A stretch of DNA of 64,000 nt. Origin: an uncultured Enterobacteriaceae bacterium. Its GTDB lineage: Bacteria > Pseudomonadota > Gammaproteobacteria > Burkholderiales > SG8-39. A program made the translations under genes and the position numbers. Location: NCBI GenBank assembly GCA_964617355.1, contig CAZTXP010000119.1, positions 2,186 to 66,185 of the forward strand, written 5' to 3'. Positions 46,348 to 60,779 of this stretch are shown here, piece by piece. The notes beneath the pieces are model-generated. The model made no database searches. It worked only from the letters and a program-made list of their open reading frames with translations, and was not told the origin of the DNA. Positions within the stretch are counted from its first letter, which is position 1, and every line of letters starts with the position of its first letter.

Positions 46348-47367
46348 CTAGCGATGGCGCCGGCTGGCGAGCGCGGCGCCGGCGGCCAGCGCACGCAGCT
46401 TCGCGGCCGCGATCTCGCGGTCCATCGGCGCCATGCCGCAGTTGGTGCACGCCACCAGGTGCTTCCTCGGCACGTACTTCAGCGCGCGGCCGATGGTCGC
46501 CGCGACCTCGGCGGGCGTCTCGACGCGGTCCGACGCGACGTCGATCACGCCGACCATGACGTCCTTGCCCTTCAGGAGCGCCATCAGCTCCGGCGGCACC
46601 TTCGAGTGGATGCACTCCAGCGACACCTGGTCGATCGACGAGCGCGCGAGCGCCGGGAAGACCTTCTCGTACTGGCGCCACTGCGCGCCGAGCGTCTGCT
46701 TCCAGTCCGTGTTGGCCTTGATGCCGTAGCCGTAGCAGATGTGCACGGCGGTCGTGCACTTCAGGCCTTTCGCCGCCCTTTCCAAGGCCTGGATGCCCCA
46801 GCGGTTGACGTCGTCCATGTAGACGTTGAACGCCGGCTCGTCGAACTGCACGATGTCGATGCCGTCGCGCTCCAGTCCCTTCGCCTCGCGGTTGAGCAGC
46901 CCCGCGAACGCCATCGCCAGCTTCACCTTGTCGCCGTAGTGGCGGTCGGCGAGCGTGTCGACGATGGTCATCGGGCCGGGCAGCGTGAACTTGATCTTCT
47001 TCTTCGTATGCGCGCGCATCAGGCGCGCCTCGGCGGCGTGCACGCGGCCCTTGAGCCTGAGCGGACCGACCACGACCGGCACCATCGCGTCGTAGCGGTT
47101 GTCGCGGATGCCCATCTTCACCTTGTGCTCGAAGTCGATGCCCTCGATCTGCTCGAGGAACCCGTGCACGAAGTGCTGCCGCGACTGCTCGCCGTCGGTG
47201 ACGATGTCGACGCCGGCGTCCTCCTGCTCCTTCAGCCACAGCAGCGTCGCGTCGGCCTTGGCGCGGGTGAGTTCCGCGCCGCTCGCGCGCCACTCGGGCC
47301 AGAGCTTCTTCGTCTCGGCGAGCCAGCCGGGCTTGGGCAGGCTGCCGGCGATCGTGGTCTTGAACAT
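46348..47367 (-). CDS. half-size (single-barrel) MetE-like methionine-synthase-family protein
   Basis: TTIAGSLPKPGWL..DIVTDGEQSRQHFV..AVHICYGYG (H-x-C)..SLECIH..ACTNCGMAP. GGAGGAGG Shine-Dalgarno. Kinase gene follows 13 nt downstream. Confidence 0.85.
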   Translation of the reverse strand: MFKTTIAGSLPKPGWLAETKKLWPEWRASGAELTRAKADATLLWLKEQEDAGVDIVTDGEQSRQHFVHGFLEQIEGIDFEHKVKMGIRDNRYDAMVPVVVGPLRLKGRVHAAEARLMRAHTKKKIKFTLPGPMTIVDTLADRHYGDKVKLAMAFAGLLNREAKGLERDGIDIVQFDEPAFNVYMDDVNRWGIQALERAAKGLKCTTAVHICYGYGIKANTDWKQTLGAQWRQYEKVFPALARSSIDQVSLECIHSKVPPELMALLKGKDVMVGVIDVASDRVETPAEVAATIGRALKYVPRKHLVACTNCGMAPMDREIAAAKLRALAAGAALASRRHR

Positions 47368-47441
47368 GGTCCTCCTCCAGGAAGTCGCGAGTGTACTGCG
47401 GGGCGCCTAAAGCGGGACGCTTCCGGGTCGTTAACAGGGGA

Positions 47442-47765
47442 ATGCGCCGCCTCATCCTCCTTGCGTTCGCCCTCGCCGCCGCATTGCCGGCCTCGGGGCG
47501 CACGCTCGAGTGCCGGTACGTCGGCGGCGCCGACAACCTGCTGCACCTCGCCTGCGAGGACCTCGAGGCCGAGGACGATCCCGCACTCGCCGACCCTCGG
47601 CGCCCGCGCTGGTGGCGCATCCCGCTGTGGTCCGCCGCGCCGTACCGCGACAGCGACCCGCTGCGGCTGGCGCGCGCGGTGCTGTGCCGGCGCGGCGAGG
47701 CTTGCGACGTCCGCATGGCGGGCTTTCAGGCGCCGTCGCGCGCGCTCGCCGCCAGCCGCGACTAG
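47442..47765 (+). CDS. small secreted Cys-containing hypothetical protein (107 aa)
   Basis: MRRLILLAFALAAALPASG signal. Four Cys. GC3-rich codons. The 3' end overlaps the convergent MFS gene by 4 nt. Confidence 0.45.
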   Translation: MRRLILLAFALAAALPASGRTLECRYVGGADNLLHLACEDLEAEDDPALADPRRPRWWRIPLWSAAPYRDSDPLRLARAVLCRRGEACDVRMAGFQAPSRALAASRD

Positions 47766-49006
47766 GGGCGGTAGGTCTCGGGCTCGCGCCGGAGCGTGAC
47801 GAGCCACAGCCACGCGAGCAGCTGCACAGCCACCAGGATGCCGAACGCGATTGCGTAGCCGCGCGGGTCGTAGCGCCCGGCCTCGGCCGGGAACTGGCGC
47901 AGGATCGCGCCCACGCCCCATTGCGCGGAGAACGAGGACACGAACATCACGATGTTGAGCGAGGTGTTCACGCGCCCGGTCATGTCGGGCGGGTAGTGGC
48001 GCGTGAGGAGCACGTAGGACAGGGCCGGCGCGACCGCCGAGGCGCCGTAGGCCACCACCAGCGCGAACTTGCCCTGCGCCGGCGCCCAGGCGAGGCCCGC
48101 GAGCGCGACGATGGCGACGAAGGTCCCGGTCTTGAAGATCGCCAGCCGCGAGATGCCGCGCGCGGCGAGCTGGTCGGCCGCGACGCCGATGGCGAACGAG
48201 GAGATCGTGTAGCCGAGCGCGGCCGCGAAGAGCCACTGCGCCGCGGTGCCGCGCTCCAGGCCGGCGACGTCCATCGCCCAGGGCGCCAGCCACAGGCCGA
48301 TCAACGACTGGTAATTCGCGTGCACCGTCATCAGCGGAAGGCCGACGCGCCAGAAGAGCGGCTGCCGGAAGATCGCGCCCATGCGCCGGAACGCCTCGCC
48401 CCAGGCCTCGCGCGCGGCGGCGAGCGGCTTCTCCGGCACGACCGTGGCGATGTAGGCGGCGCAGGCGACGCACAGCGCGGCGAGCAGCCAGAACATCGCG
48501 CGCCAGCCCCAGGCGCCGGCGCCGGCCTCGATCGGCATCGTGGCGGCGAGGCCGCCGAGACCGCCGGCCGCGATCGCCATGCCGTTCAGCGTCGCCATGC
48601 GCTCCAGCGGGAACCACATCGAGAACGCCTTCATCGAGCCCATCAGGCACGACGAGACGCCGATGCCGATCAGGGCGCGCGACAGCGCGAGCGTGCCGAA
48701 GCCCTCGGCCATCGCGAACGAGGCGGAGCCGGCCGCCGCGAGCAGCAGCAGGCCCGCGGTCACGCGCCGGGGCCCGTAGCGGTCGAGGAACACGCCTACC
48801 GGCACCTGCATCGTGGCGAACGAGAGGAAGTACGCGCTCGTCAGCAGCCCGAGTTCGGCGGGCGACAGCGAGAACTCGATCGCGAGGTCCTTGGCGATCA
48901 CCGCCGTGACGTTGCGGAAGAGGAAACTCAGGAAGAAGCCCGCGGCGAACGGGCAGAAGACGACGAGGACCAGCCGCGCCGGGAGCGGGGCGCTCCCGGC
49001 GTTCAC
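47762..49006 (-). CDS. MFS transporter
   Basis: Twelve hydrophobic segments. GVFLDRYGPRRV (MFS motif A-like). GTG start shares GTGA with the upstream permease stop. Confidence 0.85.
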   Translation of the reverse strand: MNAGSAPLPARLVLVVFCPFAAGFFLSFLFRNVTAVIAKDLAIEFSLSPAELGLLTSAYFLSFATMQVPVGVFLDRYGPRRVTAGLLLLAAAGSASFAMAEGFGTLALSRALIGIGVSSCLMGSMKAFSMWFPLERMATLNGMAIAAGGLGGLAATMPIEAGAGAWGWRAMFWLLAALCVACAAYIATVVPEKPLAAAREAWGEAFRRMGAIFRQPLFWRVGLPLMTVHANYQSLIGLWLAPWAMDVAGLERGTAAQWLFAAALGYTISSFAIGVAADQLAARGISRLAIFKTGTFVAIVALAGLAWAPAQGKFALVVAYGASAVAPALSYVLLTRHYPPDMTGRVNTSLNIVMFVSSFSAQWGVGAILRQFPAEAGRYDPRGYAIAFGILVAVQLLAWLWLVTLRREPETYRP

Positions 49007-49788
49007 TCGGCGGCGGCCGGCTCGGTGGCCGAGCCCCGGTCCCAGAACACGATTCTCTGGTGCAGGAAGCGGACCAGCTGGCTGCCGGCGATGCCGAGGA
49101 CCGCGAGACTTGCCAGAGCGGCGAACATCACGTTGGTCTCGAGGTTGACCGCGGAGGCGTTGATCAGGTGGCCGAGGCCGCGCGTGGACGAGACGAACTC
49201 CGCCACCACCGCGCCGATCAGGCCGAGCACGATCGCGATCTGCAGGCCGGCGAAGATGTGCCCCGCGGCGGAGGGGATCTTGATGCGCACGAGGATGTTC
49301 CAGCGCGAGGCCGAGAAGGCATGCATGAGATCCAGCAGCGCGGGATTTACCTGCTTCAGGCCGACCACGGTGTTGATGAACATCGGGAAGAAGCACACCA
49401 GCGCCACCATCACGACCTTGGAGGCCATGTCGAAGCCGAACCAGACGATGATCAGCGGCGCGAGCGCCACCTTCGGCATGGACTGCAGCGACACCACGAA
49501 CGGGTGCAGCACGCGCTCCACCGCGCGCGACTCGGCGAACACGCAGCCGAGCACGAACGCGGCGCTGCAGCCGAGCGCGTAGCCCGACACCATCGATGTG
49601 AGGGTGAAGAAGAAGTGCTTCCAGAACTCGCCCTCGACGTAGCCGCGCTTCATCGCGGCGAGCACGCCTTCCGGGGTCGGCAGGATGAAGTTCGGGATCT
49701 TGAACACCCGGATCGCGACATCCCACAGCACAACCACGATGACGAACGCGATCAGCGGGTGGACGATCGATTTCAGGCGTTCGTTCAT
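49003..49788 (-). CDS. ABC transporter permease (NitT/TauT family)
   Basis: LQSMPKVALAPLIIVWFGFD..ASRWNILVRIKIPSAAGHIFAGLQIA (EAA-like loop). ATGA overlap with the ATPase gene. Confidence 0.9.
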   Translation of the reverse strand: MNERLKSIVHPLIAFVIVVVLWDVAIRVFKIPNFILPTPEGVLAAMKRGYVEGEFWKHFFFTLTSMVSGYALGCSAAFVLGCVFAESRAVERVLHPFVVSLQSMPKVALAPLIIVWFGFDMASKVVMVALVCFFPMFINTVVGLKQVNPALLDLMHAFSASRWNILVRIKIPSAAGHIFAGLQIAIVLGLIGAVVAEFVSSTRGLGHLINASAVNLETNVMFAALASLAVLGIAGSQLVRFLHQRIVFWDRGSATEPAAAE

Positions 49789-50570
49789 TCGAAGGTGACC
49801 AGTTCGGTGAACAGTGCGCGCAGTTCGTTGGAGATCGCCACGAACTTCGGGTCGGCCATGGTGGCCAGCGTCCGTGGGCGCGGCAGGTCGATCTCGACCT
49901 CGCGGATCGTGCGGCCGGGGCGGGAGGAGAGCACCACGATGCGGTCGGACAGGAACACCGCTTCCGGGATCGAGTGCGTGATGAACACGACACTCTTTCC
50001 AGCGCCCATCCAGATGCGCTGCAGCTCCACCATCATGTGCTCGCGCGTCATTGCGTCGAGCGCGGCGAAGGGCTCGTCCATCAGCAGCAGCGCCGGGTCG
50101 TGCACCAGGCCGCGCGCGATGCCGACGCGCTGCTGCATGCCGCCGGAGAGCTCGCCGGGATAGTGCGATGCGAACTTCTCCAGGCCGACGAGCTTGAGCA
50201 GCGCCATCGCCTTCGCGCGGCCGGCGGCCGGGTCGAGGCCGAGCGTGCGCACCGGCAGCAGCACGTTGTCGAGCGCGGTCTGCCAGGGCAGCAGCGTCGG
50301 CTGCTGGAAGACGATGCCGACGTCGCGGCGCGGGCCGTCGATCTCGCGCCCGGCGAGCGTGACGCGCCCGCCCGAGGGCCGGAGCAATCCTGCGACGATC
50401 TTCAGCAGCGTCGACTTGCCGCAGCCCGACGGGCCGAGCACCGAGAGGAATTCGCCCGGGCGCAGCGTCGCGTCGAGGCCTTCCAGCGCCTTTACGGGCC
50501 CGCGCGCCGACGCATAGGTGACCGCGAGCTTCTCCGCCCTCAGCAGCACGTCGGGGGCGGTCGCGCTCAT
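49785..50570 (-). CDS. ABC transporter ATP-binding protein (NitT/TauT family)
   Basis: GPSGCGKSTLLK, LSGGMQQRVGIARGL and LLLMDEPFAALD motifs. Confidence 0.9.
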   Translation of the reverse strand: MSATAPDVLLRAEKLAVTYASARGPVKALEGLDATLRPGEFLSVLGPSGCGKSTLLKIVAGLLRPSGGRVTLAGREIDGPRRDVGIVFQQPTLLPWQTALDNVLLPVRTLGLDPAAGRAKAMALLKLVGLEKFASHYPGELSGGMQQRVGIARGLVHDPALLLMDEPFAALDAMTREHMMVELQRIWMGAGKSVVFITHSIPEAVFLSDRIVVLSSRPGRTIREVEIDLPRPRTLATMADPKFVAISNELRALFTELVTFE

Positions 50571-50572
50571 CG

Positions 50573-51535
50573 TTACTTCGGCGCGACGCCGAGGCGTTCG
50601 GCGAGCGCGCGGAAGCGCTCGATGTCGGAGCGGATCTGCGCCGCGAAGCGCTCGGGGGTCTCGCCGGAAGGCTCGAGGCTGAACTTCTGGAAGTCGGCCT
50701 GTCCCGCCGGACTCTGCAGGTACTTCGCGGCCTCGGCATGGATGCGATCCACCACCGGCTTCGGCGTACCGGCTGGCGCCACGAGGCCGTACCAGAACGC
50801 GGAGTCGAAGCCCGGCAGGCCGGCGTCGGAGAACTGGGGCACGGAGGGCATCGACGGCGTCGGCCTCGTCACGCCGTAGCCGCGCAGCTTGCCGGAATTG
50901 ACGAGCGAGGTGGACGCGCCGGGGTTGTCGAGGAACACCGAGACCTGCCCGTTCATCAGGTCAGGGTAGATCTGCGACGAGCCCTTGTAGGTGATGTCGG
51001 CCATCTCGGTGCCGGTCAGCGCCTTCCAGTGCAGCGAGAGGAGATATCCGAGTGTCGAGGTCCCCACGTTGGCGAAATTGAGCTTGCCGGGGTTGGCCTT
51101 CGCGTAGGCGACGAGTTCCTTCAGGTCCTTCGCCGGCAGCGCCGGGTTCGCCACCAGCACGTAGGAGGTCACGGCGACCATCGTCACCGGTTCGAAGCTC
51201 TTCAGGGGGTCGTAGGGCACGCCCTTCTGCAGCACCACCGAGGCAGGGTGCGTGCTCGAGGTGGCGATGCCGAGCGTGTAGCCGTCGGGTGCAGCCTTCG
51301 CGACCGCGTCCGCGCCGATGGTGCCGCCGGCGCCGGGACGGTTCTCGACGACCACCGGCTGGCCGAGGCCGTCGGCAAGCTTGGCGGCGATCGCGCGGCC
51401 GACGAGGTCGGTGCCGCCGCCGGCCGGGAAGGGCACGACCATGCGCAGGGGACGGGCGGGCCAGGCCTGCGCCGATGCGAGGGCAGGGAGCAGGGAAGCC
51501 GCCGCGAGGGCAGCGGCGAGGAGGCGGTGCTTCAT
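50573..51535 (-). CDS. Bug/TctC-family substrate-binding protein
   Basis: MKHRLLAAALAAASLLPALASA signal followed by AWPARPLRMVVPFPAGGGTD..APDGYTLGIA. ATGA overlap with the upstream aldolase gene. Confidence 0.9.
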   Translation of the reverse strand: MKHRLLAAALAAASLLPALASAQAWPARPLRMVVPFPAGGGTDLVGRAIAAKLADGLGQPVVVENRPGAGGTIGADAVAKAAPDGYTLGIATSSTHPASVVLQKGVPYDPLKSFEPVTMVAVTSYVLVANPALPAKDLKELVAYAKANPGKLNFANVGTSTLGYLLSLHWKALTGTEMADITYKGSSQIYPDLMNGQVSVFLDNPGASTSLVNSGKLRGYGVTRPTPSMPSVPQFSDAGLPGFDSAFWYGLVAPAGTPKPVVDRIHAEAAKYLQSPAGQADFQKFSLEPSGETPERFAAQIRSDIERFRALAERLGVAPK

Positions 51536-52275
51536 CGCTTCACCTGCGGGTACATCACGGCATCTCCGTGGCGATACATCCATTCCATTTCCTCCTGCGT
51601 CAGGGTCTCGTGCTTCACGCCGCGCGCCGCGCCGATGAGTTCCGCGAGGATGATGCGCTTCACTTCCGCGGCGAGGATGCACACGCGGTGGTAGCACTCC
51701 GACACCGTGCGCCCGAGCACCGTGAAGCCGTGGCGCTTCATCAGCACGCAGTTCGTGTCCTGGATGAAGGTCTTGATCGGCGCCACGTCGTTCTCGACGT
51801 TGATGTGCGCCGGCAGGAAGTGCGGCGGCTTCTGCATCAGGTAGGGAAACGTCAGGCCGAGGGGCTTGATCTCCTCGACGCCGGTCGAGAGCAGGGCCAC
51901 CGTCTCGTCGTGGTGCAGGTGGATCACGCAGTGGATGTCCGGCCTGAGGCGCAGCATCTCGCGGTTCATCTGGTGGCCGACCGTGGTGCCGCGGTCGCCG
52001 TGCAGCAGGCGTCCGGTGGGCACGTCGGTGATCACGAGGTCGTCGATCTCGATCTCCTCGAGCGACACGCCGTTGGGCTTCACGTAGCAGACGCCGTCGG
52101 GGTACTTCGGGTGCGGCGCGCGGATCGCCATGTTGCCCAGCGAGCTCTGGATGAAGCCGCGCCCGGCGAGCATGTGCGAGTACTTCACGTACTGCTCGCC
52201 GACCTTGCGGTCGAACGAGACGTCGGGGTCGGGCGTGACCTGGTTGACCTCGTACGTCATGCTGGCAACGGTCAT
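51532..52275 (-). CDS. class II aldolase/adducin-family protein
   Basis: GNMAIR..CVIHLHHDETVAL (metal His cluster)..MKRHGFTVLG. AAGGAG lies 7 nt before ATG 52275. Confidence 0.85.
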   Translation of the reverse strand: MTVASMTYEVNQVTPDPDVSFDRKVGEQYVKYSHMLAGRGFIQSSLGNMAIRAPHPKYPDGVCYVKPNGVSLEEIEIDDLVITDVPTGRLLHGDRGTTVGHQMNREMLRLRPDIHCVIHLHHDETVALLSTGVEEIKPLGLTFPYLMQKPPHFLPAHINVENDVAPIKTFIQDTNCVLMKRHGFTVLGRTVSECYHRVCILAAEVKRIILAELIGAARGVKHETLTQEEMEWMYRHGDAVMYPQVKR

Positions 52276-52324
52276 TTCCACACTCCTTGCGAGGGGGCGC
52301 GGGGGACGGCGGAACGTCCCACGC

Positions 52325-53386
52325 TCACTTTTGCTGGGCCGCCTTGATCACTTCCGCCGGGTCGAAGTTGTTCATCGCCGGCACCAGCGCGTTGGTGTAG
52401 AGCGCCGAGACGTCGATGTCCTTGGTCTGGATCTGGCCGCCGTCGAGCATGGCCTGCGCCATGTTCTCCCACGAGCCCTTCGGGAAGCTGCCCCAGCGCG
52501 GCAGCTCGCCGCGCGGGAACGCGAGGTACTTGTCGAAGCGGGCGGCGAGGATCCGCACGTTGTCGGCGAGGAGCTTCGCCTCGTCGCCGGGCGGCTTGGT
52601 GGACGGGTTGTGCTTCCAGAAGGCCTTCACGCACGCCGGGCGGTTGACGTTGCAGGCGACGATGCCCTTCGCCCAGGCGCGGCCGAACGCAGCGAGCGGG
52701 CCGGGCTTCGACTTCAGCGCGTCGGCGTGCGCCACCAGGCCGTTGGAGAAGAGATCCAGGTACTTCGGCGGCATCTTCAGGCGCCGGATCGGCGTGCCCT
52801 GCACCTCTAGCGTCTCGTGCAGGGTGTCGAAGAGGTTCAGCGCGTCGACGCGGCGCTCGCGCAGCGCGAGGAAGGCCGGGGCGCCGAGGCCCGTGGGCAC
52901 CAGCTCCAGGTCCCGGCCGACCTCTACGCCGAGTTCCTTGAACATCGCGCGCGTCAGCGGGATGTTGCCGAAAGTCAGCGCGCCGACGCCGAGCTTCCTG
53001 CCCTTCAGGTCGGCGAGCGTCTTCGCAGGGTGGTCGGCGAGGACCGCGAACTCCCAGACGTTCTCGCGGATCAGGTTGAAGTAGAACGCGAGCGGCAGCG
53101 GGTCCTTGCCCGGCTGGCGCGAGATGATCAGCGGGTCCGGGTTGGGGAAGCCGACGTGCACGCGCCCGTTCACGAGTTGCGGCAGCAGCACCGCGGTGCC
53201 GCCCTGGAACACCACCACCTCGACGTCGAGCTTTTCTTCTGCCCAGTAGCCGAGCTCCTTCGCCATGTAGAGCGGCGCGTGCGCGACCGCGATGCTCGAC
53301 ACGAGGCCGAAGACGAGCTTTTGCTGCGCCGCGGCCGGTGCGGCGAGCCCGAGCGCGAGGAGGACTCCCGCCAGTGCGCGACGCAT
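52325..53386 (-). CDS. ABC transporter substrate-binding protein (NMT1/SsuA-like), paralog 2
   Basis: MRRALAGVLLALGLAAPAAA signal. Collinear with the upstream paralog (QQKLVFG..GFPNPDPLI.SRQPGKDPLP..GVGALTFGN.P.TRAMFKELGV). TGATG overlap. Confidence 0.85.
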   Translation of the reverse strand: MRRALAGVLLALGLAAPAAAQQKLVFGLVSSIAVAHAPLYMAKELGYWAEEKLDVEVVVFQGGTAVLLPQLVNGRVHVGFPNPDPLIISRQPGKDPLPLAFYFNLIRENVWEFAVLADHPAKTLADLKGRKLGVGALTFGNIPLTRAMFKELGVEVGRDLELVPTGLGAPAFLALRERRVDALNLFDTLHETLEVQGTPIRRLKMPPKYLDLFSNGLVAHADALKSKPGPLAAFGRAWAKGIVACNVNRPACVKAFWKHNPSTKPPGDEAKLLADNVRILAARFDKYLAFPRGELPRWGSFPKGSWENMAQAMLDGGQIQTKDIDVSALYTNALVPAMNNFDPAEVIKAAQQK

Positions 53387-54438
53387 CAGTTCGTCGCTTT
53401 CGCGCGCGCGACGACCGCTGCGGCGTCGAAGCGGCTCATCTCGGGCACCAGCGCATTGGTGTAGCAGGTCTCGACCGGCACGTCCTTGGTCGCCAGTTGC
53501 CCGCCCTCGAACAGCGTGACCGCGAAGTCCTTCCACGCCTGCGCCGGGAACTCGCCCCAGCGGCGCTCCTTCGCGCCGTCGAAATCAAGGTACTTGTCGA
53601 AGCGCGCGGCCATGATCTTGACGCCGTCGGCGACGGCCTTCGCCTCGTCCACGCCGGTCGGCTTCTGGTTCGGGTAGGCGGCCCAGAATGCGCGCACGCA
53701 CGCGGCGCGGTTCGCCTCGCAGAACACCGAGGTCTTCGCGATCGCGCGGCCGAAGCCGACCAGCGCCTTCGGGTTGTCGCGGATCGTGTCCTCGTGGGCG
53801 ACGAAGCCATTCGAAAACAAGGACTGGTACTTCTTCGGCATGCCGAGGCGCCGGATCGCGGTGCCCTGCACCTCGAGGGTGGCGTGCTGCGAGTCGAAGA
53901 GGTTGAGGCCATCCACCTTCTTCTCGCGGAAGGCGAGGAAGGCGGGAGCGCCGACGCCGACCGGCACCAGCTCGACGTTCACGCCCAGTTCCTTGAACAT
54001 CGCGCGCGTGATCGGCACGTTGCCGAAGGTGAGTGCGCCGATGCCGAGCTTCTTGCCGTTCAGGTCCTTCAAGTCCTTGATCGGCGAGTCGGCGGGCACG
54101 ACGAACTCCCAGGCCGACTCGCGGGTCGCGTTGTAGAAGTACTTGATCGGCAGCGGGTCCTTGCCGGGCTGGCGCGACAGGATCAGCACGTCCGGGTTCG
54201 GGTAGCCGACGTGCACGCGCTTGGCGGTCATCTGCGGCAGCAGCGTGGCCGTGCCGTTGAACTCGACGATGTCGACGTCCAGCCCCTCCTCCTTGAAGTA
54301 GCCCAGCTGCTTCGCGGCGACGATGATGCCGAGGGACAGCGTCACCGTGGTCACGGTGCCGAACACCAGCTTCTGCTGCGCGTGGGCGGGGGCCGCCGCG
54401 AACGCGGCGGCGAGGAGGACGGGGGCGAGACGTTTCAT
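53386..54438 (-). CDS. ABC transporter substrate-binding protein (NMT1/SsuA-like), paralog 1
   Basis: MKRLAPVLLAAAFAAAPAHA signal. 350 aa. Tandem duplicate of the next gene. Confidence 0.85.
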   Translation of the reverse strand: MKRLAPVLLAAAFAAAPAHAQQKLVFGTVTTVTLSLGIIVAAKQLGYFKEEGLDVDIVEFNGTATLLPQMTAKRVHVGYPNPDVLILSRQPGKDPLPIKYFYNATRESAWEFVVPADSPIKDLKDLNGKKLGIGALTFGNVPITRAMFKELGVNVELVPVGVGAPAFLAFREKKVDGLNLFDSQHATLEVQGTAIRRLGMPKKYQSLFSNGFVAHEDTIRDNPKALVGFGRAIAKTSVFCEANRAACVRAFWAAYPNQKPTGVDEAKAVADGVKIMAARFDKYLDFDGAKERRWGEFPAQAWKDFAVTLFEGGQLATKDVPVETCYTNALVPEMSRFDAAAVVARAKATN

Positions 54439-54445
54439 GGCGGGT

Positions 54446-54877
54446 TCAGCCTTTCTGGCCGGCGTAGGTGCCGCGGCCGATGGCGACGAGCCGATCCTGC
54501 TCGTCGAACACGTCGATGTCGATGATCGCCACCGTCTTGCCGGCGCGGCGCACGCGCGCCGTGCCCTTCAGCATCGGGCCGGTGGCCGGGCGCAGGTAGT
54601 CGATGCGCAGGTTCATCGTCGGCACGCCGCCGCCGACCATCATGCCGATGGCGAAGTCGCCGACGACGTCGATGAACGAGGCGAGCGGGCCGCCGTGGAA
54701 CTGCTGCGTGCCCTTCCGGCGCTCGACTTCCGGGCGCAGCGGCATGGTCGCCGAGAACTCCATCTTCTCGTAGTCGACCGCGGTGCCGCGCATGCCGAGG
54801 AAGGCGATGAACGGCGAGACCGAGAAAATCTCGTTGATCTTCTCGAGCGTGAGGCGTTCCGGTTGCGCGTCGCTCAT
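54446..54877 (-). CDS. PaaI-family (hotdog) thioesterase
   Basis: 143 aa. QQFHGGPLASFIDVVGDFAIG..ARVRRAGKTVAIIDIDVFDE is a typical PaaI/4HBT-II pattern. Confidence 0.85.
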   Translation of the reverse strand: MSDAQPERLTLEKINEIFSVSPFIAFLGMRGTAVDYEKMEFSATMPLRPEVERRKGTQQFHGGPLASFIDVVGDFAIGMMVGGGVPTMNLRIDYLRPATGPMLKGTARVRRAGKTVAIIDIDVFDEQDRLVAIGRGTYAGQKG

Positions 54878-55887
54878 GGCTTCACCACCACTTTGCCGAA
54901 CACTTCACGGTCTTCCAGCAGCCGGAAAGCCTCGTTCGCCTCCTCCAGCCCGAAGGTCCGGTCGATCACGGGCTTGAGGCGCCCGGCCTGGATCAGCTCG
55001 ATCAGCGTGATCAGGTCCTCGCGCATCCAGCCGTTGGAGCCCAGCACGCGCAGCTCGAAGGTCCAGATGAAGCGGATGTCCTCGACCGGGTCGAAGCCCG
55101 CGGTCGCGCCGCAGGTGAGCAGGCGCCCCTGGCGGTGCAGCGCCTTCATCGACTTCACCCACGTGTCGCCGCCGGTGAAGTTGACCACCACGTCGACGCC
55201 GCCGGTGAAGCGGCGGCGGTGGGGCTTCTCGTACTTGGCGTAGACCCACTTCACGAAGTCTTCCTTCGTGTAGTCGATCAGGTGGTCGGCGCCGAGCTGC
55301 TTCAGGCGCTCAAGCTTCGCGGGCGTCGACGCGCAGGCGATCACTTCCGCGTCGACCAGCTTGGCGAGCTGCACGCAGCAGGTGCCGACACCGCCGGAGG
55401 CGCCGAGGATCAGCACCTTCTCGCCCTTCTTCACCTCGCCGATGGTGTACATCATGCGCAGCGCCGTGCCGTAGGCCACCGGCAGGCAGGCCGCGGCCTC
55501 GTAGGACACGTCGTCGGGCAGCTTGACGAGGTTCTGGTCCGGCACCGCGCAGTATTCGGCGAGGCCGCCCGGGCGCAGTTCGCCGATCAGGCCGCCGGAG
55601 GGCAGGTGGCGGATCACCGGGTCGATCATCACTCGATCGCCCTTGTGCCAGCCCTTCACGTCCTTGCCGAGCTCGACGATCTCGCCGGCGAAGTCGAGGC
55701 CCGCGATGCACGGCATCGGCACCTTGATGCCGGGCATGCCCTTGCGCGTGAAGATGTCGTGGTAGTTCAGCGTCGCGGCGCCGACCTTGACGATGACCTC
55801 GTCGTCGAGCGGCTTCGGATCCGGCCAGTTGGTCTCGTACTTGATGCATCCGGGACCGCCGTGTTCGTGGATGACGGCTGCTCTCAT
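54874..55887 (-). CDS. medium-chain dehydrogenase/reductase (zinc-type ADH / quinone oxidoreductase family)
   Basis: GAATLNYHD..GLDFAGEIVELG..VLILGASGGVGTCCVQLAK (GxGxxG). ATGA overlap with the thioesterase gene. Confidence 0.9.
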   Translation of the reverse strand: MRAAVIHEHGGPGCIKYETNWPDPKPLDDEVIVKVGAATLNYHDIFTRKGMPGIKVPMPCIAGLDFAGEIVELGKDVKGWHKGDRVMIDPVIRHLPSGGLIGELRPGGLAEYCAVPDQNLVKLPDDVSYEAAACLPVAYGTALRMMYTIGEVKKGEKVLILGASGGVGTCCVQLAKLVDAEVIACASTPAKLERLKQLGADHLIDYTKEDFVKWVYAKYEKPHRRRFTGGVDVVVNFTGGDTWVKSMKALHRQGRLLTCGATAGFDPVEDIRFIWTFELRVLGSNGWMREDLITLIELIQAGRLKPVIDRTFGLEEANEAFRLLEDREVFGKVVVKP

Positions 55888-55890
55888 GAA

Positions 55891-56730
55891 TCAGTTCCTC
55901 TCGAAGAAGCGGATGGCCGAACCGCAGGCATGGTCCGGGGACACCCAGACCGCGCCCTGGTCCTCGACCACGGGGATGCCCTGCGACGCGAGATGCGCGC
56001 GGGTGCGGGACAGCGAATTTACCCGAACGCCGAAGGCGACCGGGGACGGCAAGGGCGGCAGCGGCCGGAACGGCCACTCGCCGGGCGCGACGACGCGAAA
56101 GCGCCCGCGCACGGGGGAGGGGAATACCGGCTCGAGGCGCGCGCGCGTCGCGGCGGCGTCCTCGGAGCAGAACCACGCTTCCTCCATGGCGACCGCGCCA
56201 TTCGCGTGCTCGAGCAGGTGCGGCTGCCAGATCACGTCGCGCGTCAGGTGCTGGATGTAGAGGAATCGCGCCTCGGTGTACTTCTCGCGATCGAGGTAGC
56301 AGTTGCGGAATTTCGCGCGGCGGACTTCCTCGTCCCTGGGGCCGAAAGTCGCGTCTCGTTCGAGGGACCGTGGCGCCTCGACCGGGACGCCTTTCGCGAG
56401 CAGTTCCTCTCGCACGGCGTCGACGGTGACGTTCGTTCCCGGAGGCGACACACCGATGGCGACGATGTGCAGGCCCTCGTAGCGCTCCACCATCGGCTTC
56501 ACCGAGCTGTAGGTGTCCGGGTCGGTCAGGCCGATGATCTCGAGGTAGCCCTCGCGGAACATCGCGCAGTGGTTGCCCGAGCCCCAGACCTCGACCGGCC
56601 CGCCGGGCACGCGCGAGCCGGAGTGGATGCTGCGCGCGGCGAGCGTGAAGCCGAGCTTCGAGTACGCGTCGCGGCCGCGGTCGAGGCTCCTGACCGCGAC
56701 GCCGACGTGGTCCAGTTCAAGCGTGAGCAT
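55891..56730 (-). CDS. two-domain VOC (glyoxalase/dioxygenase) family protein, paralog B
   Basis: LDHVGVAVRSLDRGRDAYSKLGFTL..NHCAMFREGYLEIIG. Collinear with the upstream paralog. Confidence 0.8.
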   Translation of the reverse strand: MLTLELDHVGVAVRSLDRGRDAYSKLGFTLAARSIHSGSRVPGGPVEVWGSGNHCAMFREGYLEIIGLTDPDTYSSVKPMVERYEGLHIVAIGVSPPGTNVTVDAVREELLAKGVPVEAPRSLERDATFGPRDEEVRRAKFRNCYLDREKYTEARFLYIQHLTRDVIWQPHLLEHANGAVAMEEAWFCSEDAAATRARLEPVFPSPVRGRFRVVAPGEWPFRPLPPLPSPVAFGVRVNSLSRTRAHLASQGIPVVEDQGAVWVSPDHACGSAIRFFERN

Positions 56731-57517
56731 GGGGCACCATCCTGAGGACGAATCCGTTGGTGCTCGCCGGGCCGACCCAGAGGTCGGCGCCGTTGCGATG
56801 CACCTCGATGCCCCGAGTTTCCATCAATCGCGCCGCCGCCTCCAAGTCGGAGAACGAAACGGTCACCGCAGCGAATGCGGGCGCCGCCGGCGCCCAGCCG
56901 TAGCGCCCGGCGAACGCGGCGGGCGAGGCGGCCTGCGCGATGCCCTCGAGCGCCGAGATGCGCGCCATGACGGCGGGGTCGTCGGTCACCACGGTGACGT
57001 CCTCCAGCGCGCGCGCGCCGTTCTCGTGCCTGGTCAGCGCAGGCTGCCAGAGGTATTCCGGCGTCTGGTGCTCGATCACGATCCATCGGCCCTCGGGGCA
57101 GGCATCGTCGCGCGAGAAGATGTTGCGGAAGCGCATGACGCGCGGCGCGCCGTCGACCAGCAGCGGCCGCTCGCGCGCCACCGGCGGGGACAGGAACGGC
57201 GCCTTCGGCGCGAGCAGCTCCCATGCGTCGTCGGCGTGCGCGCAGCGCAGCGCGAGCAGGTGCATGCCCTCGAAGCGGGCGAGGAACTTCGCCCACGGGT
57301 TGTGCGCGGCGGGGTCGACCAGGCCGATCAGTTCAAGGTAGCCGCGTTCGAAGATCGCGCAACGGTTCGCGCTCGCCCACGGCTGCATGCCCTCCTGCCC
57401 CGGCACCGCGCCGCGCTGGCGCGACACCGGCGACAGCGTGAAGCCGAGCGCCTCCCAGCGCGCGGCGCCGGCGGCGAGGTCGCGGACGATCGTCCCGGTG
57501 TGGTCTAGCGACAGCAT
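56717..57517 (-). CDS. two-domain VOC (glyoxalase/dioxygenase) family protein, paralog A
   Basis: LDHTGTIVRDLAAGAARWEALGFTL..NRCAIFERGYLELIG. The 3' end overlaps the next gene by 14 nt. Confidence 0.8.
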   Translation of the reverse strand: MLSLDHTGTIVRDLAAGAARWEALGFTLSPVSRQRGAVPGQEGMQPWASANRCAIFERGYLELIGLVDPAAHNPWAKFLARFEGMHLLALRCAHADDAWELLAPKAPFLSPPVARERPLLVDGAPRVMRFRNIFSRDDACPEGRWIVIEHQTPEYLWQPALTRHENGARALEDVTVVTDDPAVMARISALEGIAQAASPAAFAGRYGWAPAAPAFAAVTVSFSDLEAAARLMETRGIEVHRNGADLWVGPASTNGFVLRMVPHAHA

Positions 57518-57524
57518 CGGCGGC

Positions 57525-59018
57525 TCAGGCGGTGGCCGCGAGCTGTTCCAGCGCGATAGCCTTCAGCGCCTTGCGATCCACCTTGTTGGTGCCCGCGAGC
57601 GGCAGCTCCTTCATGAAGGTCACGCGGCGCGGGTGCTGGTAGGGCGGCGCGTTCGCGAGCGCGTACTGCTTGACCGCGTCTTCGGTGAGCGAGGCGCCGG
57701 CCTTCAGCACGATGAACGCCACCGGCTTCTCGCCCTTCAGTTCGTCGGGTACCGGCACGACGCACGATTGCAGGACGTCCGGGTGGCGCTCGAGCATCTG
57801 CTCGACCTCGCCCGGATAGATGTTCTCGCCGCCGCAGTTGAACATGTCGTCGTCGCGGCCGACGAAGGTGTAGGCGCCCGAGGCGTCGCGCCGGAAGACG
57901 TCGCCGGAGATGTACCAGCCATCCGGCGTCAGTACCTCGCGCGTCTTTTCCGGAAGGTTCAGGTAGCCCTTCATGGTCGCGGGCGTGCGCTGCCAGAGGA
58001 CGCCCTCGTCGGTGTCCTTGCCGTCCTTGTCGACGAGGCGCACGTCGACACCGGGCAGCGGCCAGCCGAGCGCCATGTCGGGCTTCGACTTGCCGGGCGC
58101 CGGGCCGAACACCACGGGGCCCGCCTCGGTGGTGCCATAGGCGTTCGACACCACGGCATTGGGGAAATACGAGCGGATGTCGTCGATCAGCTTCTGGCTG
58201 GTGGGCGCCGAGCCCATGCGCACGTAGTGCACCCTCGAGAGGTCGGTGCGCGCGAGCGTTTCCTTCTCGCGCACCACCATCGCCAGCATCGTCGGCACCG
58301 AGGTGAGCCACGTGACGCCGAATCGGCCGATCGCCTCGACGTAGCGCTTCGCGTCGAACTGCGGCATCAGCACCATCGAGGCCTGCGCCGCGAAGATGAA
58401 CTTCGAGGTGCCGAGCGCGTTCATGTGGAAGAGCGGCGCGGCGACGATCAGGCGCTCGTCCTGCAAGGACTGGCCGCCGCGCAGCCGGGACTCGACCGCC
58501 CAGAGGTGGCCCTGGTGCGACAGCGGCACGCCCTTGGGACGCCCGGTGGAGCCGGAGGTGTAGAGGATCATCGCGACCTCGTCGGGCACCGGCTGCACGG
58601 TGGCGAAGTCGCCGCGATCGAGGAACGCTTCCCAGTCGGGTCCGTATTCCACCGCCGGCATCCCGGCGGGCAGCAGGCCGCGGCGCTCGTGGTCGCAGAA
58701 GGCGAGCTTCGTCGCCGAGTCCTCGAGCACGAAGGCGATGGTGTCGCGCGGGAACTTGTGGTTCACCGGCACCGCCACCATGCCGGCGCGCATGATGCCG
58801 AAGTAGGCGGCGAGGAACTCGGCGCGGTTCGCCGAGAGGATCGCCACCGCATCGCCGCGCTTCAGGCCGCGGCGCACGAGGCCGCGGGCGACCGCCTTCG
58901 CCAGGCGGTCCATCTCGCCGTGCGTGACGGTGCGCGGCAGGGTCCAGTCGAGGCAGTCGATGACCGCCGTGGTGTCCTCCGCTTCGGGGCGGAAGTAGTC
59001 GCCGAGGTTCGTGAACAT
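57525..59018 (-). CDS. AMP-dependent acyl-CoA synthetase/ligase
   Basis: ATG 59018 (M81 of the track ORF). LYTSGSTGRPKG, YGTTE, GWYISGDV..GRDDDMFNCGGENIYP. Confidence 0.9.
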   Translation of the reverse strand: MFTNLGDYFRPEAEDTTAVIDCLDWTLPRTVTHGEMDRLAKAVARGLVRRGLKRGDAVAILSANRAEFLAAYFGIMRAGMVAVPVNHKFPRDTIAFVLEDSATKLAFCDHERRGLLPAGMPAVEYGPDWEAFLDRGDFATVQPVPDEVAMILYTSGSTGRPKGVPLSHQGHLWAVESRLRGGQSLQDERLIVAAPLFHMNALGTSKFIFAAQASMVLMPQFDAKRYVEAIGRFGVTWLTSVPTMLAMVVREKETLARTDLSRVHYVRMGSAPTSQKLIDDIRSYFPNAVVSNAYGTTEAGPVVFGPAPGKSKPDMALGWPLPGVDVRLVDKDGKDTDEGVLWQRTPATMKGYLNLPEKTREVLTPDGWYISGDVFRRDASGAYTFVGRDDDMFNCGGENIYPGEVEQMLERHPDVLQSCVVPVPDELKGEKPVAFIVLKAGASLTEDAVKQYALANAPPYQHPRRVTFMKELPLAGTNKVDRKALKAIALEQLAATA

Positions 59019-59070: not shown

Positions 59071-59691
59071 ATGAAGAAACCTGTTTCACGCCGAGGCCGA
59101 TCGAAACGGCTGATCGTCGGCATTTCCGGCGCCACGGGTGCCGTCTTCGGCGTGCGCCTGCTCCAAGCGATTTCCGCCGAGCCCGGCTGGGAAGCGCACC
59201 TCGTGCTCACCGACGCCGGCGTGCTGAACGCGCACCAGGAGCTCGGCATGACCCGCAAGGCGGTCGAGGGCCTCGCCGAGGTGCACTACCACCCGAAGGA
59301 CATCGGCGCCGCGATCGCCAGCGGCTCCTTCCTCACCGAGGGCATGATCATCGCGCCCTGCTCGATGAAGACGCTGGCGGCGGTGGCGCACGCGCATGCC
59401 GACGACCTCATCTCCCGCGCCGCCGACGTGGTGCTGAAGGAGCGCCGGCGCCTGGTCATCCTGCCGCGCGAGGCGCCGTTCAACCTTGCGCACCTGCGCA
59501 ACATGGTGGCGGTGGCCGAGATGGGCGGCATCGTGTTCCCGCCGGTGGGCGCGTTCTACTCCAAGCCGAAGACGATCGCGCAGCTGGTGGACCACACGGT
59601 ACACCGCGTGCTCGACCTCTTCGGCATCCACTCCCCCACGCTCGCGCGCTGGCGCGGCATGGGCAAGCCCGTGACGCGAGACGACGAATGA
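59071..59691 (+). CDS. ubiX: flavin prenyltransferase UbiX
   Basis: KRLIVGISGATGAVFGVRLLQ..ASGSF..MIIAPCSMKTLAAVAHA..DLISRAADVVLKERR.LV is collinear with E. coli UbiX. Confidence 0.9.
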   Translation: MKKPVSRRGRSKRLIVGISGATGAVFGVRLLQAISAEPGWEAHLVLTDAGVLNAHQELGMTRKAVEGLAEVHYHPKDIGAAIASGSFLTEGMIIAPCSMKTLAAVAHAHADDLISRAADVVLKERRRLVILPREAPFNLAHLRNMVAVAEMGGIVFPPVGAFYSKPKTIAQLVDHTVHRVLDLFGIHSPTLARWRGMGKPVTRDDE

Positions 59692-60779
59692 GCGAGCTGG
59701 CCGTGTTTTCCCGGACCTACCCCGAGGCGCGCGCGAAGTTCGTGGACGCGGTGCGCGCCGCCGGCGGCACGGTGACGAGCTACCGCCACGACACGCAGAA
59801 GGGCCCCGCGGGAGAAGACCTGTACCTCGACGTCGGCGTGGTCGGCCCGAAGGACGCGTCGCGCCGGATGGTGGCCGCCTGCGGCACGCACGGCATCGAA
59901 GGCTTCTCCGGTTCGGCCGCGCAGGTGGCATGGCTCGCGGGAGGCGGCGCGAAGCGGCTGCCTGCCGATACGTCGGTGGTGTTCCTGCACGCGATGAATC
60001 CCTGGGGCTTTGCGCACCAGACGCGCTGCACCGAGGAAAACGTCGACCTCAATCGCAACTTCGTCGCCTTCGATGCGCCGCGGCCGGCGAACCCCGGCTA
60101 CCACGAGGTGCACCCGAACATCACGCCCGCCGACTGGGACGACGCCACCGTCGCCGGCATCTTCCGCTGGCTGGACGAGTTCCGCGCGCGCGTCGGCGAG
60201 CAGGCCTTCTCGGATGCGTACAACGGCGGCCAGTACTCGCACGCGGACGGCATCTTCTTCGGCGGCGAGCGCGTGCAGTGGGCGACGCGGACTTTCCTGC
60301 AGGCGGTGGATGCGCACCTCGCCGGCGCGAAGCAGCTGTCGTTCATCGACCTGCATACCGGCATCGGGCCGTACCTCGACCACATCTACATCTGTTTCCA
60401 CAAACCGGGTACCGCCGCATGGGAACGCGCGCGGCACTGGTGGGGCGAACGCGCGGTGAACCGGCAGGGCGTGACGCACAAGGCGCTCGCCGACTACAAG
60501 GGCATCCTGATCAACGCGCTGTCGGAGCGCCTGCCGTCGACCGACATCACCACCGTGGTGATCGAGTTCGGCACGCGCGAGCGCCGCGACATGCAGCGCG
60601 CGGGCATGGCGGGGCGTTGGCTGCACTTCGAGGGCCACAAGGATCCCGCGAAGGCGAAGCGCGTGAAGGCCGAGTACGTGGAGGCGTTCTACCCGTCGGC
60701 GCCCGAGTGGAAGAAGGCGGTCCTCGAGCAGTCGCGGGATTTCCTCGACCGGGCGCTGAAGGGCGTTTCGGGGGCCTGA
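59688..60779 (+). CDS. DUF2817 / M14-like (succinylglutamate desuccinylase-aspartoacylase superfamily) protein
   Basis: ATGA overlap with ubiX. CGTHGIEGFSGSA..FLHAMNPWGF..ENVDLNRNF..IDLHTG carries the zinc-carboxypeptidase-like H-x-x-E...H pattern. Confidence 0.75.
   Translation: MSELAVFSRTYPEARAKFVDAVRAAGGTVTSYRHDTQKGPAGEDLYLDVGVVGPKDASRRMVAACGTHGIEGFSGSAAQVAWLAGGGAKRLPADTSVVFLHAMNPWGFAHQTRCTEENVDLNRNFVAFDAPRPANPGYHEVHPNITPADWDDATVAGIFRWLDEFRARVGEQAFSDAYNGGQYSHADGIFFGGERVQWATRTFLQAVDAHLAGAKQLSFIDLHTGIGPYLDHIYICFHKPGTAAWERARHWWGERAVNRQGVTHKALADYKGILINALSERLPSTDITTVVIEFGTRERRDMQRAGMAGRWLHFEGHKDPAKAKRVKAEYVEAFYPSAPEWKKAVLEQSRDFLDRALKGVSGA

Follow-up and report, generated by a model that had tools for sequence, protein, structure and literature searches.

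Twelve co-directional genes on the minus strand of a Burkholderiales metagenome-assembled genome (MAG) form a real, tightly packed operon at positions 47762-59018 of the window analysed here, a stretch of 64,000 nucleotides from contig CAZTXP010000119.1. Comparison with orthologous clusters shows that this operon is a mosaic, in which a conserved five-enzyme core and its usual NitT/TauT-type ATP-binding cassette (ABC) importer are combined with lineage-specific additions. We propose, with a probability of roughly 45%, that the locus serves the catabolism or salvage of a small polar carboxylic acid, which is handled as its coenzyme A (CoA) thioester.

A tightly packed operon of twelve genes

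The gene families, order and junctions that an earlier, sequence-only reading had assigned to this locus were confirmed by the open reading frame (ORF) listing and Pfam scans. The first gene encodes an AMP-forming acyl-CoA ligase (57525-59018; PF00501, 260 bits, and PF13193) and is followed by genes for two paralogous, two-domain Glyoxalase_3 proteins of the vicinal oxygen chelate (VOC) type, here called VOC A (56717-57517; PF13468, 80 bits) and VOC B (55891-56730; PF13468, 86 bits). Next come a zinc-free medium-chain dehydrogenase/reductase (MDR) of the enoyl-thioester/quinone-oxidoreductase type (54874-55887; ADH_N and ADH_zinc_N) and a PaaI/THEM2-type 4HBT hotdog thioesterase (54446-54877; PF03061). 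Two tandem paralogs then encode NMT1/SsuA-like periplasmic binding proteins, NMT1a (53386-54438; PF09084, 89 bits) and NMT1b (52325-53386; PF09084, 75 bits), which share 59% identity. Two accessory genes, one for a decarboxylase-like protein of the class II aldolase/adducin fold (51532-52281; Aldolase_II, PF00596, 79 bits) and one for a TctC/Bug-family binding protein (50573-51535; PF03401, 188 bits), precede the genes for a NitT/TauT-type ABC ATPase (49785-50570; PF00005) and ABC permease (49003-49788; BPD_transp_1, PF00528). The last gene encodes a transporter of the major facilitator superfamily (MFS; 47762-49006; PF07690, 123 bits).

Junctions computed from ORF coordinates and translations overlap or nearly abut, in agreement with the single compact unit proposed earlier. 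ATGA overlaps join the MDR to the thioesterase gene (4 nucleotides), the aldolase-like to the TctC gene and the ATPase to the permease gene, while permease and MFS genes share GTGA. The two VOC genes overlap by 14 nucleotides and the two NMT1 genes by one (TGATG). Gaps of only 7, 3, 7 and 2 nucleotides lie between ligase and VOC A, VOC B and MDR, thioesterase and NMT1a, and TctC and ATPase, respectively. The largest spacer is, as previously stated, the one before the aldolase-like gene, with 49 nucleotides if the gene starts at ATG or 43 if it starts at GTG. A consensus scan of the operon region found no sigma-70-like promoter, and weak terminator-like sites number two there versus 6.5 expected by chance. 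GC content is uniform and the same as that of the flanks.

The enzyme core recurs in dozens of species

A survey of neighbourhood conservation had been suggested along with the sequence-only reading, and it was carried out by VOC protein alignment in 41 related genomes and then in one genome per GTDB species. This search yielded 80 loci, the content of which was scored by tblastn of all window proteins. The resulting counts are lower bounds, since many contigs end within clusters.

Genes for the ligase, a VOC protein, the MDR and the thioesterase occur together in 37 of the 80 loci, all from separate species-level genomes, and because this four-activity set recurs so often the arrangement is far beyond chance. 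Carriers of the set belong to Burkholderiales, Alphaproteobacteria and Acidobacteriota and include a Sodalis relative. A VOC protein, the MDR and the thioesterase are found together in 43 loci (hereafter core loci). Ligase orthologues with 55-84% identity adjoin VOC genes in 45 of the 80 loci, and both VOC paralogs are present in 24. Within one genome of the same genus (G002, locus L013, 3491-4063), the orthologous ligase is represented only by a 61-residue fragment upstream of class V, ald and VOC genes, and the ligase gene may be disrupted there.

Importer genes are frequent companions of this core. An NMT1 binding protein is encoded in 27 of the 43 core loci, the ABC ATPase in 20 and the permease in 19, and about 20 loci from several classes combine the enzyme core with an NMT1-type ABC importer. 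The NMT1 tandem pair is kept in 15 loci. Other genes are more sporadic, including those for an amidase (13 core loci), the aldolase-like protein (12), TctC (11) and the MFS transporter (9), the last of which comes after the permease gene.

Four architectures were distinguished among the relatives. In Burkholderiales MAGs, genes for a DUF2817 protein and an AsnC regulator diverge from a main string that encodes, in order, a thiol-dioxygenase-like cupin, ligase, VOC A, VOC B, MDR, thioesterase, amidase, two NMT1 proteins, aldolase-like protein, TctC, two ABC components and MFS transporter. Cultured Achromobacter, Orrella, Chitinasiproducens and Bordetella sp. BOR01 carry a version with one VOC protein, MDR, thioesterase, NMT1 protein, two ABC components, DUF2817, ligase, cupin and AsnC. 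Loci of Xanthobacteraceae, Bradyrhizobiaceae and Herminiimonas begin with AsnC and a Cys_Met_Meta_PP enzyme, after which the same core follows. Finally, marine Alphaproteobacteria have a trio resembling HcnABC/opine oxidase, followed by ligase, VOC, MDR and thioesterase genes.

Smaller sets of loci carry further enzymes. In the window's own genus a SufS-like class V enzyme and an alanine dehydrogenase are encoded between the ligase and VOC A, and an MmgE/PrpD gene can also occur there. The closest full relative of the window cluster (locus L032 of genome G012) has upstream genes for a UbiD protein, a ring hydroxylase dependent on FAD with an Rng_hyd_C domain, an HgmA-like cupin and an alpha/beta hydrolase. 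Related UbiD genes accompany ligase-VOC A pairs in five further loci (six in all), and a ring hydroxylase with a cupin occurs in four loci plus L104, a metagenome contig described below. A thiol-dioxygenase-like cupin gene lies beside the ligase gene in 12 of the 43 core loci, and a Cys_Met_Meta_PP lyase gene is directly upstream of the VOC gene in five loci.

Measured against these orthologous clusters, the lineage-specific part of the window cluster would comprise the duplicated binding protein, the inserted aldolase-like/TctC pair and the MFS carrier, and the cluster has lost the regulator, the cupin and the amidase. The earlier statement that no regulator is encoded is literally true, as the window holds no regulator gene in or beside the cluster, but this reflects a local loss, given that a conserved Lrp/AsnC gene is found in 19 related loci, all of them core loci. 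The best AsnC match in the same genome has 37% identity and is on a different contig. Similarly, the three uptake systems said to be mixed with the enzymes are present as genes, but they are better described as a conserved core that has an ABC importer of its own and is joined by an inserted aldolase-like/TctC pair and an MFS gene, and relatives keep different subsets of these parts.

A DUF2817 hydrolase belongs to the conserved set

The cluster was first thought to end at the ligase gene. This boundary must be moved, since a DUF2817 gene located behind the divergent ubiX gene (59688-60779, plus strand; PF10994, 384 bits) is retained in 20 of the 43 core loci and belongs to the conserved set. 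It is a single-copy gene in this genome. Residues H68, E71, H223 and E293 and the motif N122-R123-N124 (NRN) are invariant, a pattern that corresponds to the HxxE...H zinc ligands, the catalytic Glu and the NRN carboxylate-binding motif of M14 enzymes. Foldseek matches are to the AstE/AspA family and to carboxypeptidases (E 1e-5 to 1e-7), with TM scores of only 0.35-0.48. A sequence search of the PDB returned no relative of this protein, and a literature search found no usable description of DUF2817.

Enzyme families point to CoA thioester chemistry

The CoA-dependent chemistry suggested by the sequence-only reading is supported by the family assignments, and no established pathway was matched, as had also been suspected; none of the enzymes corresponds to an NCBIfam equivalog. 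The ligase reaches no such model. The MDR gives its best NCBIfam scores with PIG3 (205 bits), crotonyl-CoA reductase (Ccr; 150 versus a cut-off of 379) and acryloyl-CoA reductase (147 versus 500), all below cut-off, and scores 89 against 440 for AcuI. Its zinc ligands are absent, with Asn in place of Cys46, no His of the GHE motif and no Cys-rich lobe, and its NAD(P)H Rossmann motif is GASGGVG, both of which agree with the enoyl-thioester reductase branch of the MDR proteins. The thioesterase scores 71.4 bits with TIGR00369 (cut-off 36.6), carries the catalytic motif HGG-x6-D and is nearest in the PDB to 3e29 from Bordetella and to PaaI. Its identification as PaaI itself was rejected, since the equivalog TIGR02286 yields only 32.9 bits versus a cut-off of 118.9.

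VOC A and VOC B have 266 and 279 residues, respectively. Neither matches an NCBIfam family at E 1e-5, the methylmalonyl-CoA epimerase (MMCE) model included, and a PDB sequence search with VOC A gave no relative. At E 1e-3, this VOC family has 1213 representatives in a library of 1.8 billion proteins. VOC B is the type found in every single-VOC cluster, and its AF2 model is a two-domain VOC fold with a pLDDT of 96.6. The best match for the whole chain is an uncharacterised Staphylococcus aureus protein (3p8a, Z 20.6), and comparisons with 4-hydroxyphenylpyruvate dioxygenase (HPPD), hydroxymandelate synthase and extradiol dioxygenases give Z values of 15-18. The N-terminal half taken separately is nearest to MMCE (6wf6; Z 11.3, root-mean-square deviation 2.3, 22% identity), and a second epimerase (6qh4, Z 10.7) and glyoxalase I are also among its close matches.

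Conserved residues are distributed unevenly between the two domains. All orthologues of VOC A keep H6 and E62, and at least 90% of them keep H86, E142, E149 and H150. In VOC B, compared over 112 sequences, D7, H8, N53, C55, Y62, E64, H88, R125, H161, T163, H175 and N177 are nearly invariant, while beyond residue 180 only P228, G270 and F275 are kept in at least 90%. Candidate ligands are thus confined to the N-terminal half, and the same 112 sequences show no conserved His or Glu in the C-terminal domain that could provide a 2-His-1-carboxylate site. An MMCE-type His/Glu/His/Glu(-His) pattern is present on strands beta1, beta4, beta5 and beta8, the strand positions being those of the model. 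With conserved ligands only in the N-terminal half and MMCE as the closest structure for a single domain, the VOC proteins seem closer to MMCE-type enolising enzymes than to extradiol dioxygenases. Of the two roles earlier considered for them, ring-cleaving dioxygenase or isomerase, the second accordingly fits this predicted site better.

Natural gene fusions link these proteins to one another. A ligase::Glyoxalase_3 fusion (P0011) was found on three independent metagenome contigs, where an Asp_Glu_race-family gene comes before it and genes for an MDR and a 4HBT protein come after it, and two VOC::VOC fusions (P0004 and P0005) were also recovered. These fusions tie the VOC proteins to the ligase product and the paralogs to each other. 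In the JGI metagenome contig L104 (199-4749), the Asp_Glu_race-family gene, the fused ligase::VOC gene and the MDR and 4HBT genes have IclR and FAD ring hydroxylase genes downstream.

A plasmid collection yielded only distant VOC relatives, with at most 31% identity. Two of these (25-31% identity) have distinct surroundings. On a Sagittula sp. P11 plasmid (L098), a distant two-domain VOC gene is found with genes for Lrp/AsnC, a peptide-type ABC importer, a class V enzyme and a 2-aminothiazoline-4-carboxylate hydrolase. On an Erwinia sp. E602 plasmid (L099), a distant VOC gene comes after genes for a TIGR04028-type importer, a luciferase-like monooxygenase and an alkylhydroperoxidase-domain protein.

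Transport genes and the aldolase-like/TctC pair

The NitT/TauT-type ABC architecture is complete, with an NMT1-type binding protein, a BPD_transp_1 permease and an ATPase encoded in one operon. The ATPase scores 226 bits with the TauB model (cut-off 357) and the permease 130 bits with the SsuC model (cut-off 347), such that the equivalog cut-offs of TauB and SsuC, and likewise that of SsuA, are all missed. A PDB sequence search with NMT1a returned uncharacterised binding proteins only. Sec signal peptides are carried by NMT1a, NMT1b and TctC, and because of these and the importer genes a role in uptake is proposed.

The presence of an orphan TctC receptor had been considered unusual. It is ordinary here: the genome encodes at least 150 TctC/Bug-family proteins, or about one per 33 kb, versus about four TctA proteins. 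This extreme Bug expansion makes orphan TctC genes the normal condition of the genome. No TctA gene is present on the window's contig, the four matches of the genome being on other contigs (C150, C40, C115 and C68), and the TctC, TctA and TctB set of a TTT system is incomplete at the locus. The informative feature of this TctC is instead its fixed pairing with the aldolase-like gene, which directly precedes it in all 12 loci that carry the latter. TctC orthologues with 64-73% identity occupy the same position in 11 loci. The nearest PDB entries of the aldolase-like protein include the NovR decarboxylase and Mlr6791, which are non-sugar members of the family.

Proposed function

We infer the order of the steps, the VOC chemistry, the substrate of the MDR and the nature of the acid as follows. 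The three receptors (two NMT1-type and one TctC), the ABC permease and ATPase and the MFS carrier would import an acid or a dicarboxylate precursor, which the class-II-aldolase-like protein may decarboxylate. The AMP-forming ligase would then convert the acid to an acyl-CoA. Using the putative MMCE/glyoxalase-I-like His/Glu/His/Glu metal site in their N-terminal halves, the VOC paralogs would abstract the alpha-proton of the thioester, resulting in isomerisation, epimerisation or beta-elimination of a substituent to give an alpha,beta-enoyl-CoA. The zinc-free MDR would reduce the double bond of this product with NAD(P)H, and the PaaI-type thioesterase would free the saturated acid and recycle CoA. 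The DUF2817 hydrolase probably cleaves an amide conjugate and so sets free the acid or an amino acid.

The acid may be alpha,beta-unsaturated, derived from a (hetero)aromatic compound or derived from a sulfur amino acid. The additional genes of related loci, namely those for UbiD/ubiX, ring hydroxylase, cupins, the Asp_Glu_race-family protein, thiol-dioxygenase-like and C-S-lyase-type pyridoxal phosphate enzymes, amidase and DUF2817, suggest that the acids are alpha,beta-unsaturated or (hetero)aromatic and that sulfur or amide conjugates are involved.

Several observations weigh against this proposal. All of the enzymes stay below the NCBIfam equivalog cut-offs, and their activities are therefore assigned at the family level. 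The likeness of the whole VOC chain to HPPD, hydroxymandelate synthase and extradiol dioxygenases makes oxygenase chemistry possible, and distant members of the VOC family, as well as the VOC::VOC fusion P0004, occur without a CoA ligase. Hydrolysis of a product CoA ester wastes energy in a route for carbon catabolism. Also, the accessory genes are too varied between lineages for any single substrate to explain them.

In a more specific form of the proposal, which we regard as a long shot, the two-domain Glyoxalase_3 proteins would be a new class of acyl-CoA lyase or isomerase acting with the ligase, MDR and thioesterase in a shunt driven by ATP and NADPH. Such a shunt would remove a substituent at the beta position, such as a thiol, sulfonate or amine adduct, or shift a double bond, returning the saturated free acid. 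If true, this would give the VOC family and DUF2817 their first function and would represent a widespread means of detoxifying or salvaging Michael-acceptor acids and their conjugates.

Alternative explanations

An aromatic route is an unlikely alternative. A hydroxy- or heteroaromatic carboxylate would be processed as its CoA ester, with the VOC proteins acting as Fe(II)-dependent ring-cleaving dioxygenases of the hydroquinone or extradiol type, the MDR as a quinone or maleyl-type reductase and the thioesterase freeing a product that has been cleaved or hydroxylated, on the model of the salicylyl-CoA/gentisyl-CoA route. This is consistent with the whole-chain VOC comparisons, with PIG3, a quinone-oxidoreductase family, as top NCBIfam match of the MDR, with the resemblance of the aldolase-like protein to NovR and to pyridine-dicarboxylate decarboxylases, and with the adjacent ubiX gene. 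It also agrees with the UbiD, ring hydroxylase, HgmA-like cupin and alpha/beta hydrolase genes directly upstream of the closest full relative and with the ring hydroxylase of the same kind in L104. However, the ring-cleavage reading is weakened by where the conserved VOC residues lie. Past residue 177 of VOC B, the few positions kept in at least 90% of sequences include no His or Glu, and these would be expected in the C-terminal, iron-binding-type domain. The N-terminal domain offers four candidate protein ligands, as in isomerases, rather than a 2-His-1-carboxylate triad, and the window and most core loci lack the aromatic genes.

A second alternative is an organosulfur route, which we consider rather improbable. 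A thiol-, sulfinate-, sulfonate- or thioether-acid, such as a 3-mercaptopropionate-like compound or a product of a cysteine S-conjugate, would be activated with CoA, a VOC protein would eliminate the sulfur group, the MDR would remove the acryloyl-type CoA ester and the sulfur would be assimilated. The Ssu/Tau-type importer is in keeping with such a substrate, as are the lyase genes upstream of VOC genes, the SufS-like and alanine dehydrogenase genes within the operon in the same genus, the MetE-like and MetY-like genes nearby (see below) and the hydrolase and class V enzyme encoded beside the distant Sagittula VOC protein. The cupin found beside the ligase also has 3-mercaptopropionate dioxygenase as its nearest PDB entry (64 bits), although the Gln of characterised 3-mercaptopropionate dioxygenases is replaced by Arg in this cupin. 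The window operon encodes none of these sulfur enzymes, and the MetY synteny is limited to close relatives, where it may be inherited gene order. Proteins of sulfate starvation are usually depleted in Cys and Met, whereas the cluster enzymes lie between the 32nd and 95th percentiles of the 3497 predicted proteins of the genome. A sulfate-starvation-type scavenging operon was dropped as the leading reading for this lack of Cys and Met depletion.

A chance juxtaposition of an enzyme cassette, an ABC importer, a Bug receptor and an MFS gene without common function would suit the variation of the aldolase-like/TctC pair, MFS gene and second binding protein between relatives and the scattering of TctC genes over the genome, but it is contradicted by conservation and is highly improbable, as junctions are tight along the entire string, the same order, with aldolase-like/TctC placed between binding proteins and ATPase, recurs in 11-12 loci, and the core keeps its importer across classes.

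Neighbouring genes

On the upstream side, ubiX (59071-59691, plus strand; PF02441, 129 bits), which encodes the synthase of prenylated FMN, is divergent from the ligase gene as previously described, with a spacer of 52 bp, and its stop overlaps the start of the DUF2817 gene. It is the sole ubiX copy in the genome, which has five UbiD-family genes on other contigs (C82, C210, C68, C38 and C143). Since ubiX holds the same position only within the genus (L020), and is otherwise near the cluster in a Bradyrhizobiaceae MAG (L082), its membership of the cluster is uncertain.

On the downstream side lies a gene for a half-size MetE-like methionine synthase (46348-47367, minus strand; PF01717, 118 bits; NF006589, 577 bits, above cut-off), which was considered as a thirteenth operon gene. 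In three related loci (L013, L014 and L017) it follows the MFS gene by about 30 nucleotides. In the window this candidate was rejected because a plus-strand ORF (47391-47765) intervenes between the MFS and MetE-like genes. This ORF, which encodes 124 residues, is convergent with the MFS gene, has high GC content at third codon positions and a clear signal peptide, and matches no Pfam family.

A MetY-like Cys_Met_Meta_PP gene is located about 1.5 kb past the end of the window (G000:C119:67651-68883). It is 87% identical to a gene that nine related Burkholderiales loci carry a few kb away from the cluster, a proximity that may reflect inherited gene order or a sulfur link. A Ser/Thr kinase with a cyclic nucleotide-binding domain is encoded further downstream (45042-46334, minus strand). 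It has about 13 paralogous matches on 10 contigs of the genome, and its neighbourhood with the cluster is not kept in the relatives.

Comparison with known systems

Dozens of proteobacterial species from soil, freshwater and the sea keep the five-enzyme core together, and it is directly testable, as its carriers include the cultured Achromobacter aloeverae AVA-1, Orrella sp. JC864, Chitinasiproducens palmae JS23 and Bordetella sp. BOR01. Solving it would provide a first function for DUF2817 and for the two-domain Glyoxalase_3 family, with its approximately 1200 representative clusters, and would show the purpose of a route that activates, modifies, reduces and releases an acid. It would also explain the repeated joining of this core to thiol-dioxygenase, C-S-lyase, UbiD and ring-hydroxylase genes. 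A literature search found no description of the gene combination.

The genes for 4-chlorobenzoate dehalogenation form one compact operon. That pathway, with its FcbA ligase, FcbB dehalogenase and FcbC hotdog thioesterase, likewise activates its substrate as a CoA ester, modifies it and hydrolyses the product with a 4HBT/PaaI-type enzyme. Here, however, the modifying enzymes are two VOC proteins and an MDR, an importer and DUF2817 are also encoded, and Pfam reveals no crotonase-family (ECH) dehalogenase among the twelve products.

The modules that convert 3-hydroxypropionate to propionyl-CoA, represented by the propionyl-CoA synthase of Chloroflexus and by the synthetase, dehydratase and acryloyl-CoA reductase of Metallosphaera, resemble the core in combining a CoA ligase, an eliminating enzyme that forms an enoyl-CoA and an MDR-family reductase. 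The 147 bits of the present MDR were obtained with the archaeal acryloyl-CoA reductase model. In those modules, by contrast, the lyase is a crotonase rather than a VOC protein and neither a thioesterase nor an importer is included, and scores here fall below the cut-offs. Ccr together with ethylmalonyl-/methylmalonyl-CoA epimerase pairs an MDR enoyl-CoA reductase with a VOC-fold enzyme that acts at the alpha-carbon of a CoA thioester. MMCE, however, is a single-domain protein of about 140 residues, whereas the VOC proteins here have two domains and belong to Pfam Glyoxalase_3, and Ccr exceeds the present MDR by about 100 residues. Because the defining enzymes of each system are missing or below cut-off, the cluster is a member of none of these three.

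In the catabolism of 3-mercaptopropionate and dithiodipropionate by Advenella and Variovorax, the thiol dioxygenase Mdo, CoA activation and 3-sulfinopropionyl-CoA desulfinase act in hosts of the same order, and in 12 of the related loci a cupin is likewise encoded beside the CoA-activating enzyme. Unlike that route, the window cluster has no desulfinase of the acyl-CoA-dehydrogenase type, and the cupin, which is absent from the window, is of the Arg rather than the Gln type. SsuABC and TauABC share with the importer their three-component architecture and Pfam families, the ATPase being nearest TauB and the permease nearest SsuC, but all three parts score well short of the equivalog cut-offs, there are two copies of the binding protein and no SsuD/TauD-type oxygenase is encoded here. 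What the present analysis adds is the membership of DUF2817 and Lrp/AsnC in these clusters, the MMCE-like catalytic half of the VOC proteins, the natural ligase::VOC fusion and the map of a mosaic.

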